DNA from: a virus
Virus genome (UHGV): UHGV-0016284
Strand: one strand, 5' to 3'
DNA: 55,548 bases
The notes under the pieces are model-generated. The model worked only from the letters and a program-made list of their open reading frames with translations. It was not told where the DNA came from and made no database searches. The number at the start of each line of letters is the position of its first letter. Position 1 is the first letter of the stretch. The position numbers and the translations under genes are program-made. Positions 9,401-11,827 of this stretch are shown here, piece after piece.

Positions 9401-10066
9401 GATAACTTGTGGTTATCTTTTGCAGGCCACGATGGTGTAAAATTCACTGGGGCAGCAGCTGGTATCAGAATTCAGGCTTCAACTGGTTGGGGCACGACAT
9501 CAACTCAATGCGGGATAACATTTGCAACAACTGCTCAAGGGAGCACAACAAGAGTTGATAGATGGTCTATAACAAGTGATGGCACTCTATCACCTGCACA
9601 AGATAATACTTACGCAATTGGTAGCGCTGTTTCCCGTGCTACGTCAATCTTTGCTACTAATGGTGCAATACAGACGTCAGATGCAAGAATGAAAACAGAT
9701 GTCCGAAAAATGTCGGACGCGGAACTTTCAGCCGCTAAAGATATAGCCAGGGAGTTTGGCTTCTTCCAGTGGATTGAAAGAGTTAAAACGGAGGGTGAGT
9801 CAGCCAGGTGGCATACAGGTATAACGGCCCAGCGTGTTATTAGCATTATGGAATCACACGGATTAAACCCGATGGCGTATGGATTTGTTTGCTATGATTC
9901 CTGGGAAGAACAGGAGGTTGTATCTGTGGACCCAGATAATCAATCCAGGACTATCACAAAAATAGAAGCGGGGGATAGATATAGCTTAAGATATGAAGAA
10001 CTTAGCATTTTTATAGCCAGAGGGTTAGAACAGAGGATTTCGGAGCTGGAGGAAAAACTTTTGTAA
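6407..10066 (+). CDS. side tail fibre: Stf-like N-terminus, C-terminal S74-type intramolecular chaperone (autoproteolytic) domain
   Basis: N-terminal AAKTSETNAKKSETAAKTSETNAKTSE repeats as in lambda Stf-type fibres; Gly-rich beta region; C-terminus ...TSDARMKTDVRKMSDAELSAAKDIAREFGFFQW... resembles the Ser/Lys self-cleaving chaperone of endosialidase-type fibres. Confidence 0.8.
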   Translation: MIYTTGTIAINGNTVTGTGTNFSAPLSLIRVGCTLIAVGNPVQIFTITEIKSGTELSVTPAANPAIPAGTKFSILLSDSISVDGLAQDVAETLRYYQGKETEIAAAVEWWEDFGGDGQVDQLLANIRAETAKSTANAQKTESDKNAAEASKTAAAKSATAAKTSETNAKKSETAAKTSETNAKTSENRAQEYLNQMGRLTSPMVQCDWPVTTVATDAYVKIAKITNPGGTPCHITLMITNAGNYGKSYGNIDFVEISARNFPNELNADNVSRYLSIRRLGSPNLATDNQMSYGLVKGDNFFEVWCCQRAFTTSAKVAVLAQTNENVELYIPEGFVRQDNAPSGFIESPAARIYDQVNKPTKADLGLSNAMLTGAFGLGGSGIPSDGKMSDVELLKALRDKGGHFWRADKPAGSTATHYTHGAGIFSRCGDTWAAFNVEYGTGRVKVYAGNDNGLNQGNYSLNELYGTRNKPSKSDVGLSNVTNDAQVKKSGDIMFGDLAIKKSIPSVFLRSDDGAAHVWFQNGDQSERGVIYAPTNTDTLGEVHIRAKTAKGETKGDFIVRHDGMISAKEAKIAYKISGATAELANASTNVADTTLKISGPQHTPLVLTRSGAIKNLSIGFKVDDVNQKYLGVAGDGDLYFGDSSDHSKNSKVITQAKLDSGVTVGGKTTFSDLATFNAGMAGSIEPEAIDGRTIDLNDLIIANTEAGSVKYYQCKTVAGGANITNKPDGVNGNFLLRVESTRKTTGSDYANLQTLIGSDTKRIYVRFVVNGSWTVWSQVVVSGWNQDVTVRSLATQNVILGNVTLRGINKDEGAGIGVVFDGSNSTENTFGIVNTGGGSAVFHNYAKPADSSAVNTGVLIGGYGSRPWTGSTYTEHSNVSQHFLMDGVASATNHGGWFRLLTTPLNATIDKRRQTFATSNNGDLYIGYDVPMGLYKLDTANYNGLDILNGRGLKQVNNSVNEIALITPRNGSATSLNFRGVAFDGTMTGTKGATQKGDNLWLSFAGHDGVKFTGAAAGIRIQASTGWGTTSTQCGITFATTAQGSTTRVDRWSITSDGTLSPAQDNTYAIGSAVSRATSIFATNGAIQTSDARMKTDVRKMSDAELSAAKDIAREFGFFQWIERVKTEGESARWHTGITAQRVISIMESHGLNPMAYGFVCYDSWEEQEVVSVDPDNQSRTITKIEAGDRYSLRYEELSIFIARGLEQRISELEEKLL

Positions 10067-10169
10067 TATTGCCGCAATGGATGAGCGGATAGCAAAACTT
10101 GAAGCGCTTATCAGTCAGTTGACCGGAAGCGAAGAATAAGAGGTGATGTACGAAGAACATCGCCGCGCG

Positions 10170-10197
10170 AAACGAGGCTTACGCCTCGTTTCTTTTT
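10170..10197 (+). terminator. rho-independent terminator after the tail fibre gene
   Basis: Hairpin aacgaggc-ttac-gcctcgtt followed by tcttttt. Confidence 0.7.
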
Positions 10198-10451
10198 GTG
10201 TACCAAATCGTGACCAAATTGATAAATCAAAAACAAAAACAAATCATAAGATATTGAATGCAAACAGGTTTTTCGCTGAACTACCCATTCAAAAGATAAA
10301 CGGATAGTGCCATTTCTATAATTTCATATCGTGTCGCATCGTCACCGTTTCGCGTTGATTTAAAAAGAAATATTTATTCTATCGTGTCATATCGTTCCCT
10401 ATCGTGGTACTATCCATGCGTAAAATGTGTGTACCAAATAGTGACCAAATT
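10197..10451 (+). promoter_or_regulatory. putative attP / integrase regulatory region with 24-bp direct repeats and ATCGTG-type short repeats
   Basis: tgtgtaccaaatcgtgaccaaatt at 10197-10220 recurs (1 mismatch) at 10428-10451, directly abutting the int ATG; several tatcgtg/catcgtc repeats lie between; no tRNA-like sequence seen. Confidence 0.35.
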
Positions 10452-11651
10452 ATGCTTACAGATACCAAACTAAGAAACATCCACGGCAAGCCATACGACG
10501 GCCCGGAAGAAGTACCGGATGCGGGCGGATTGTCTGCCAGGATAAGCCCGCGCGGAGTTATATCTTTCCAGTATCGCTACCGATTCAACGGCAAGCCTCG
10601 ACGGATGAAGATCGGCACATACGGAGAAATAACACTTAAAGAAGCCCGCGCGGCGGTGGCTGAACATAAGGAAGTGTTAAACTCAGGACGAGATCCATCA
10701 ATCGTAAAAAGAATGCACTTTTCCCGCGTTACGACACGGGCAACGGTTGAGGATATTGTCAGGGAGTACATGGAATCACCACAGGCAAGAAACATGGTTA
10801 ACTATAAGCAGGTTGAAGCGATGTTGAATAAGCACGTCATCAGGCCATACGGTAGCTATATAGTCGATGATATGGACGCTATGATGTGGGAGGGTGTTTT
10901 TAGAAAGGTGGCTAATGGTGGTGCACCAGTTCAGGCGGGCATAGTTCTCAATAGAATGAAAGCGGTAATAAAATACGCCATGCGTCGCCGCCGCGTGGAT
11001 CGTGACGACATATCTTTACTACGCGTGAAAGACGTTGGTAAAAACCCGGCGCAAGGGAAGCGGGTTTTGTCAATACAGGAGATTCGCCATCTAATCAGCC
11101 TTATAGACAGTTCAAAAATGGCGCGTCTAAATCAGATATTGATGAAACTGATTATATTCACCGGATGCAGGACAAGCGAGCTAACAAACGCAAGGCGAGA
11201 ACATTTCGATCTTGATAACTGCGTGTGGACTGTGCCGGGTGCATTGAGTAAGAACAGAAACGAGTTTAAACGCGGTTTATCCGACGTTAGCGTCGATTTA
11301 TTGCGTGAGGCTATGGATCTGCATAGCTTTAATTTTGTCTTCGTTCCTGTGCTTTCTGGAAGGGATGAGGCGGTGGACAGAAGTGTACCGAAAACAGCGG
11401 CAAGGGATTTGATGTTAAGGATGGGCGGCGAGCCGTGGTCGTGTCACGATCTACGCCGCACTGTGAGAACGAACCTCTCTGCCATTGGCATTGCGCCTCA
11501 CGTTGCAGAAAAGGTTTTAGGTCATAAGCTGGCGGGGATGTTGGCTATATATGATCAGTATGACTACGTGAGGGAACAGACAGAGGCGATGAACATGCTT
11601 GCTGATTATTACATGAAGCCCATTGATTTACAAAATGAAATAACGTCCTGA
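10452..11651 (+). CDS. int: tyrosine integrase, P4-type
   Basis: N-terminus MLTDTKLRN...GLSARISPRGVISFQYRYRFNGKPRRMKIGTYGEITLKEARA is the characteristic P4-family start; C-terminal catalytic region with HDLRRT and LGH...Y-containing tail. The track start at 10404 is probably an upstream extension. Confidence 0.9.
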   Translation: MLTDTKLRNIHGKPYDGPEEVPDAGGLSARISPRGVISFQYRYRFNGKPRRMKIGTYGEITLKEARAAVAEHKEVLNSGRDPSIVKRMHFSRVTTRATVEDIVREYMESPQARNMVNYKQVEAMLNKHVIRPYGSYIVDDMDAMMWEGVFRKVANGGAPVQAGIVLNRMKAVIKYAMRRRRVDRDDISLLRVKDVGKNPAQGKRVLSIQEIRHLISLIDSSKMARLNQILMKLIIFTGCRTSELTNARREHFDLDNCVWTVPGALSKNRNEFKRGLSDVSVDLLREAMDLHSFNFVFVPVLSGRDEAVDRSVPKTAARDLMLRMGGEPWSCHDLRRTVRTNLSAIGIAPHVAEKVLGHKLAGMLAIYDQYDYVREQTEAMNMLADYYMKPIDLQNEITS

Positions 11652-11827
11652 TAACGGTAAAGAGATCCGCCGCGCTTTAACGCTGGCATTCCCTTAACGG
11701 GTTCAGGGAATGGAGTACCTGAATCCTTCCATTTTTTAACCAGCTTAAAAAATGCTGACTTACTTAGCCCGCCTAACATTTTTTGCACTTGCTCACGATT
11801 AATAAGAATTGCGCCGATCTTATCCAT
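11609..11827 (-). CDS. AlpA/Xis-like small DNA-binding protein (putative excisionase or regulator)
   Basis: 72 aa; pattern L.G.SKS.FFKLVKK...FP.PVK......W...DV resembles the AlpA/excisionase HTH family; convergent with and overlapping the int 3' end. Confidence 0.5.
   Translation of the reverse strand: MDKIGAILINREQVQKMLGGLSKSAFFKLVKKWKDSGTPFPEPVKGMPALKRGGSLYRYQDVISFCKSMGFM

Follow-up and report, generated by a model that had tools for sequence, protein, structure and literature searches.

The interval 10193-10451 of the DNA analysed here (the 55,548-nt virus genome UHGV-0016284, hereafter the window) is the genuine attP of a temperate E. coli phage that inserts at the 3' end of abgT. The window belongs to the mEpimmI group of coliphages and carries an integrase of type II; it is about 90% identical to mEp010, mEp013, mEp044 and MagusPhagus (90-92% DNA identity). 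As an attP of a P4-family integrase it is ordinary, and the insertion site of the phage group has been published before: the abgT target and the class "type II integrase" were both reported for mEp010, mEp013 and mEp044 (PMC11893012). The terms "attP", "direct repeat", "excisionase" and "Xis" were not found in the text of that paper, so the arm repeats, the ATCGT arrays and the candidate promoter element presented below are apparently undescribed there. Strains 127 and 190, among others in its Table 2, contain related prophages split at abgT.

The initial annotation had called this interval attP-like, and related prophages do break inside it. Through comparison with complete E. coli genomes, we found that such prophages matched the window only from about 10291 rightwards (int side) or only leftwards to about 10299-10307 (tail-fibre side), and the sequence on the far side of each junction was abgT. 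The core was set by a four-way alignment of the window attP, the attL and attR junctions of strains 127 and 190, and the empty attB of K-12. The common core occupies 10291-10307 (AAAAGATAAACGGATAG in the window and AAAAGATAAGTGGATAG in K-12 attB), and 15 of its 17 positions are identical to K-12 abgT. In strain 190, positions 10299-10302 read AAAT at the int-side junction (attL) and AAGC at the tail-side junction (attR), and position 10290 has the host base at the former junction and the phage base at the latter. Considering these junctions together with position 10290, strand exchange is confined to AAAAGATAA at 10291-10299. An imperfect inverted repeat, CTACCCA (10281-10287) and CGGATAG (10301-10307), is a candidate for the core-type sites. 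The window had also been taken to show the phage (attP) permutation, and this holds: the tail fibre, terminator, attP and int are contiguous in the window and in MagusPhagus, while in the prophages the two halves stand beside abgT fragments and are separated by about 55 kb.

The distance between the core and the 3' end of abgT is 83-99 nt. Integration trims AbgT from 508 to 480 residues (28 codons), and the C-terminus is not restored; the stop codon for the shortened abgT is supplied by the phage directly beyond the core. An intact attB was present in 4894 of the 5426 complete E. coli genomes (about 90%), and none of the 5426 has an attB identical to the core variant of the window (A at 10300). 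Of what had been expected from a search of bacterial genomes for the attB core, the location inside the interval proved correct, but the target is the 3' end of a protein gene and not a tRNA. A tRNA-type attB or a structured RNA was considered and rejected: no tRNA was found anywhere in the window, and Rfam, at E values up to 1, returned nothing beyond an sRNA match that stayed below the threshold, with 21.9 bits where the gathering score is 55.

The features of the region are collected in Table 1. The tail-fibre gene ends at 10066, and an AT-rich palindromic spacer is located between the two ATCGT arrays. The IHF-like match was the only one at one mismatch, with 0.36 expected per 266 nt. Among 11 type II attPs, its TTGAAT and TAA are invariant and the four N positions are variable, a pattern that suits an IHF site, and we consider it a candidate.

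Table 1. Features of positions 10169-11827 of the window.
Feature	Position	Strand	Remarks
Intrinsic terminator closing the tail-fibre operon	10169-10192	+	10-bp stem, 4-nt loop and T-run; kept in all relatives
Repeat copy 1, P-arm pair of putative arm-type integrase half-sites	10197-10220	+	
IHF-like site ATTCAATATCTTA, one mismatch to WATCAANNNNTTR	10247-10259	-	Between copy 1 and core, in an A-rich stretch
Core region	10281-10309	.	From prophage junctions and attB alignment
ATCGT array A, two direct copies 10 nt apart, P' arm	10327-10343	+	Conserved within type II
ATCGT array B, three TATCGT at 10-nt spacing plus TATCC	10380-10415	+	
-10-like hexamer TAAAAT, candidate int promoter element	10421-10426	+	One base 5' of copy 2
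Repeat copy 2, P'-arm pair of putative arm-type half-sites, candidate operator	10428-10451	+	
int, 399-aa P4-type tyrosine integrase	10452-11651	+	
72-aa helix-turn-helix protein	11609-11827	-	Convergent with int, overlaps its 3' end

The integrase has the domain order of the P4 type: Arm-DNA-bind_3 (PF13356, residues 2-87, E = 2e-19), Phage_int_M (PF22022, 100-191) and Phage_integrase (PF00589, 205-371). Its N-terminal domain matches the solved N-terminal chains 3jtz and 3ju0 of CP4-like and phage integrases. It is 94.7% identical to the mEp010 integrase, with about 90% DNA identity across int. Three upstream in-frame starts (GTG 10404, ATG 10416 and ATG 10425) were rejected, because a 2-nt indel in relatives (AAATT against AAAAATC) breaks the frame and puts the upstream ATGs out of frame; the start is therefore ATG 10452, and repeat copy 2 is non-coding. 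PGAP placed the start codon of int in the prophages at the same ATG. In mEp010, phanotate called the int start at the equivalent of 10416. No Shine-Dalgarno sequence was found before the int ATG in the window.

The interval contains two copies of a 24-nt repeat in direct orientation, TGTGTACCAAATCGTGACCAAATT (copy 1) and TGTGTACCAAATAGTGACCAAATT (copy 2), which differ by one mismatch (C to A at the 13th base) and are 231 nt apart from start to start. They were the only two matches in the window at up to three mismatches on both strands, and 100 dinucleotide-preserving shuffles of the window gave no match. The positions and the shuffles thus uphold the earlier description of a 24-bp direct repeat with one mismatch whose second copy stands against the int start. 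Copy 2 ends at 10451 and the ATG occupies 10452-10454, so the two are contiguous with 0 bases between them. The interval was rightly described as AT-rich, with a GC content of 33.6% at 10193-10451 compared with 46.0% for the whole window. Copy 1 ends 70 nt before the core, and copy 2 starts 120 nt after it.

Each repeat is composed of a tandem pair of half-sites of about 11-12 nt, GTG(T)ACCAAA, spaced by about one helical turn; in copy 1 these are GTGTACCAAAT (10198-10208) and then GTGACCAAAT (10210-10219). We found no further exact half-sites in the rest of the window, regulatory regions included, and near matches across the window showed no excess over the shuffled expectation. An operator role of the half-sites elsewhere in the window is therefore unsupported.

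The 24-nt repeats are best read as arm-type integrase sites, with one pair in each arm. The layout had been likened to that of P4, and the GenBank record of P4 (X51522) annotates a matching arrangement of arm repeats: under "attP arm sequence repeat", two adjacent 12-bp repeats stand 16 nt upstream of int, followed by the core and two more adjacent 12-bp repeats, all oriented as int. In both elements int lies beside attP and is transcribed away from the core, and the distance from pair to pair is 209 nt in P4 and 231 nt here. The P4 integrase is of the same family and has the Arm-DNA-bind_3 domain (27% identity over 252 aa by tblastn). The arm motif is different, TTGGGGGCAT in P4 against GTG(T)ACCAAA here, and P4 has extra inverted and internal repeat copies at the int start and inside int, of which the window has none. 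The proximal pair of P4 keeps its spacing from the ATG, whereas that of the window has 0 nt and no Shine-Dalgarno sequence. The target of P4 is a tRNA gene, whereas that of the window phage is abgT.

The repeats were also found in phages with other integrases. The mEpimmI types Ia and Ib, which insert at ydaM, retain the two repeats in unchanged orientation at a distance of 241 nt (231 nt here), although nothing else between these repeats, the core included, is related to the window. Between type II and type I integrases, identity is 63-66% in the arm domain, 54-55% in the catalytic domain and 32-34% in the core-binding domain, a gradient that would be expected if the arm specificity was retained and the core specificity changed. 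In these type I phages and in other lineages, 14-30 nt with a Shine-Dalgarno sequence lie between the pair and the int ATG, so the direct abutment of pair and ATG is peculiar to type II. Within the mEpimmI group, the repeats have conserved neighbours, the terminator beside copy 1 and the 5' end of int beside copy 2, so part of the repeat conservation in this group is possibly hitch-hiking.

More distant loci, with integrases 32-47% identical and unrelated backbones, have one tandem pair close to int and another that lies 230-246 nt upstream of the first. They include the Salmonella phage vB_SosS_Oslo, with umuDC upstream and eaA downstream. In the distant lineages, the observed repeat match was reached by at most 3 of 100 shuffles. 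The half-site motif is GTGTACCAA in lineages with 44-47% identity, and drifts to GTGTACATA in those with 41% and 32%. Compared with these lineages, the mEpimmI phages have lost one T in the second half-site, in both arms. As a control, loci in the prophage configuration, in which the P arm is elsewhere, were found without the distal pair.

The four arm-type sites, all in the same orientation, would be bound by the Arm-DNA-bind_3 domains of an integrase tetramer, one per protomer. The integrase would then bridge the arms to the core in the intasome, with exchange inside AAAAGATAA.

The P' arm contains five copies of ATCGT (10328, 10338, 10381, 10391 and 10401), all on the + strand and all on the int side of the core. 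By chance, 80 nt should contain about 0.08 copies, and any other 80-nt stretch of the window holds at most two. Considering the 10-nt spacing and the 53 nt between the arrays, all copies are roughly in helical phase. A sixth ATCGT is located inside repeat copy 1, and its position varies among relatives. The "ATCGTG-type" short repeats of the initial annotation are thus real and clustered, but they form a separate, lineage-specific element outside the arm-site motif: type I phages have TCCGT(T/A)C repeats in place of ATCGT at equivalent positions. A reading of the TATCGT repeats as CII-like activator sites was set aside, since no comparable repeat occurs elsewhere in the window and the motif is absent upstream of int in type I phages of the same immunity group. 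Excisionase sites are typically direct repeats one helix turn apart (PMC7498355), and by this analogy the arrays are candidate sites of an accessory protein, for which an excisionase would be the likeliest choice.

The 72-aa protein encoded beside int may be the partner of these arrays. The ORF itself gave no Pfam hit, and its mEp021 homologue (44% identical) hits HTH_23, HTH_28 and HTH_29. The protein matches a PHROG family annotated as "DNA binding protein" (E = 4e-4); it is 44% identical between integrase types and belongs to a narrow E. coli family. Its AF2 model (pLDDT 74) gave weak fold matches to MerR-type proteins, BldC and a putative excisionase, with E values of 0.28 or worse, and a sequence search of the PDB gave no significant match. 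From the modelled fold, we might propose this protein as a candidate recombination directionality factor (excisionase), with a chance of being right that falls a little short of even.

In the lysogen, ogt and the abgT fragment lie beside int, both on the opposite strand. Considering these neighbours and the upstream terminator, which would shield int from late transcription, the int promoter must lie in the 144-nt P' arm, between core and ATG. A sigma-70 consensus scan revealed no full promoter and no -35 element on the P' arm. The only hit of the scan, at 10219-10247, was rejected as the int promoter: it is located in the P arm upstream of the core and would be separated from int in a lysogen. 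Five lineages have a TAnnAT hexamer at one and the same offset from the proximal pair, namely TAAAAT (the window), TAGAAT (strain 127 and the L085 group), TAAGAT (Oslo), TAAAAT (L105) and TAATAT (L116). The hexamer is weaker in types Ia, Ib and L127 (CAAAAA, TAAAAA and CAAAAA/AAAAAT), and it is absent at that offset in the L123-type lineage.

A transcription start about 7 nt downstream of this hexamer falls in repeat copy 2, so an integrase on the proximal pair would occlude the start of int. Bound there, the integrase would cover roughly +1 to +20 and so repress int, on the pattern of P4 and KplE1. In KplE1, integrase and excisionase repress where attL overlaps the int promoter (PMC2951348), and for P4 a repression of int by both Int and Vis is reported (Piazzolla et al. 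2006, cited in PMC2951348). By this analogy, autorepression of int through copy 2 is plausible, and we put its chances at about even.

The repeats could instead be bound by another protein (the 72-aa helix-turn-helix protein, another phage regulator or a host factor), with the ATCGT arrays as the true arm sites. The half-sites are indeed about one helical turn apart, as is typical for excisionase arrays (PMC7498355), and the ATCGT repeats are strongly clustered and phased. We nevertheless consider this improbable. The ATCGT arrays are found on one arm only and are replaced by other motifs in type I despite arm domains that are 63-66% identical, whereas the GTGTAC-type pairs track the integrase family into unrelated backbones, and the equivalent pairs of P4 are annotated as arm repeats. 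Oslo, by its annotation, has no small helix-turn-helix or excisionase gene beside int, only a 37-aa hypothetical ORF and EaA, and the absence of the pair motif from the rest of the window, regulatory regions included, also speaks against this reading. More improbable still is that the repeats bind nothing and are a duplicated remnant or mosaic junction, kept by descent as mere substrates of homologous recombination. They do sit exactly at the borders of conserved and swapped segments in the mEpimmI group, and one lineage was found with a precise repeat-by-repeat deletion of the intervening 231 nt. A neutral 24-nt repeat able to delete attP would, however, be expected to be lost rather than retained. 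In type II attPs the repeat varies in the linker and in the last two bases while the half-sites are constant, which points to selection; the derived 1-nt deletion in the second half-site is common to both arms, and layout and spacing persist with the distant integrases and their unrelated flanks.

It is also possible that the repeats are arm-type sites but that the proximal pair is non-regulatory, the int promoter lying elsewhere and the abutment to the ATG being incidental. The missing -35 element and the restriction of direct abutment to type II agree with this. However, the terminator and the opposite host genes restrict a promoter to the 144-nt P' arm, TAnnAT stands at a fixed offset in five lineages, and P4 and KplE1 offer a precedent for regulation (PMC2951348), so that we regard a non-regulatory pair as rather unlikely. 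The explanation as a whole, an attP with arm-type pairs, a proximal operator and ATCGT accessory sites, is in our judgement probable.

The attL/intS/TorI region of KplE1 (CPS-53) is like the window in that attL overlaps the int promoter (PMC2951348), an overlap that is predicted here. There, the -10 and -35 elements are overlapped or flanked by arm-type P' and excisionase sites, and int and the excisionase gene are transcribed separately (PMC2951348). The KplE1 sites were mapped experimentally, have a TAAA motif and belong to an element inserted at the argW tRNA, whereas the regulation in the window is predicted. With lambda attP, the window shares a heterobivalent integrase and a short overlap in a core common to attP and attB; its counterparts of the lambda arm-type sites in both arms are putative, and that of the IHF site is a candidate. 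The N-terminal domain of the lambda integrase belongs to a different family, however, and the arm sites are not the same in number or arrangement. Transcription of lambda int comes from the distal promoters PI and PL, and its attP does not overlap an int promoter (PMC2951348).

A scan of 185,579 species-representative genomes with TGTACCAAATNGNGACCAAA gave 13 single hits in unrelated MAGs; it was uninformative, since 18 specified bases would turn up about 17 times by chance in 596 Gb. One IMG/VR hit was an unrelated contig (L021) in which the match is beside a tRNA 3' end, and it was taken as chance.

Considering the distant lineages, we might speculate that the arm module is portable across a subfamily of P4-type integrases whose members occur in mEpimmI coliphages, in Salmonella phage Oslo and in further prophages of enterobacteria. 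Such a module would unite one tandem GTGTAC(C/A)-type pair in each arm, at a distance of about 230-240 nt, with a -10 element joined directly to the proximal pair and with a conserved N-domain, and only the core-binding domain and the core would be exchanged for retargeting (ydaM, abgT, mppA and others). Type II would be a compacted form, in which the arm pair is the whole leader of an int mRNA without a Shine-Dalgarno sequence. [quoted passage not shown] What is new is the fine annotation of the attP (core, crossover segment, arm pairs, candidate IHF and excisionase sites, and candidate int promoter element) and the conservation of the GTGTAC-type arm-pair layout over a wider integrase subfamily. 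The mEpimmI phages are abundant and little-studied gut coliphages, of which previously the insertion locus alone was published. The segment 10150-11660 is predicted to serve as a self-contained cassette for integration at abgT. The arm motif and its spacing are kept while the core and the core-binding domain are swapped, a case of natural modular retargeting that could guide integrase engineering.

Two metagenomic contigs, IMG/VR 3300045988_076816 (L026/L075) and 3300045988_064823 (L038/L077), which shared 99.7% identity, were found to carry no attP. In both of them the terminator was followed by one hybrid repeat and then by the int ATG; the 231 nt between the repeats were precisely deleted, and the attP core was gone with them. 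These contigs represent either a natural attP-less variant, generated by recombination between the two repeats, or an assembly artefact.

Contig L013 (IMG/VR 3300045988_111075) contained a type II P arm which, after AAAAGATAAGTGG and about 100 nt past repeat 1, was joined to the coding sequence of the C-terminus of an AlpA-like protein and not to abgT, suggesting insertion beside another P4-like element or recombination with it. In the unrelated contig L021 (IMG/VR 3300002898_000029), GTACCATTTTTTGTACCAAATAGAGACCAAAC and the 3′ end of a tRNA were separated by about 60 nt; this copy is probably a chance match to the pattern, though it lies in an att-like context.

No Shine-Dalgarno sequence was found before the type II int; in type I and the more distant lineages the gap between the repeat and the ATG was 14–30 nt and included a Shine-Dalgarno sequence. 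The int start predicted by phanotate in the related phage mEp010 was an upstream ATG, which is out of frame in relatives with a 2-nt indel. An extra GATACCAAA was present 11 nt past the int ATG, where it codes for a DTK conserved at the N-terminus of the integrase; at this place many type II relatives have ACCAAAT and type I does not, so this copy is probably a coding coincidence.

Across the ATCGT arrays, a 31-aa “hypothetical protein” was annotated in records of related phages (mEp010_01 and MagusPhagus CDS0018). Its ORF was broken by a TAA in the window, and it is probably not a gene. Another small ORF, of 20 codons (MDERIAKLEALISQLTGSEE), followed the tail-fibre stop and preceded the terminator; it was conserved in mEp010.

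Coordinates of the features discussed
Feature	Window	Other sequence
20-codon ORF	10078-10140	
Segment deleted in the attP-less contigs	10221-10451	
TCA	10288-10290	
Region compared with K-12 abgT	10288-10307	L003 4248-4347
Polymorphic right half of core	10300-10309	
31-aa ORF equivalent	10331-10363	
TAA in this ORF	10361-10363	
int start region, no Shine-Dalgarno sequence	10404-10454	
Extra GATACCAAA	10463-10471	
GTACCATTTTTTGTACCAAATAGAGACCAAAC		L021 7186-7240

The right half of the core was polymorphic across the aligned type II relatives (AAACGGATAGTG, AAGTAGGTAACG and AAGCGGATAACG), and no complete E. coli genome had an attB exactly matching the window at position 10300. Identity between phage and attB is required only across the 9-nt AAAAGATAA.

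The comparison with K-12 abgT revealed that integration cuts 28 C-terminal residues and shortens AbgT from 508 to 480 aa. Read on the abgT strand, the phage TCA supplies a TGA stop, and nothing takes the place of the missing C-terminus.
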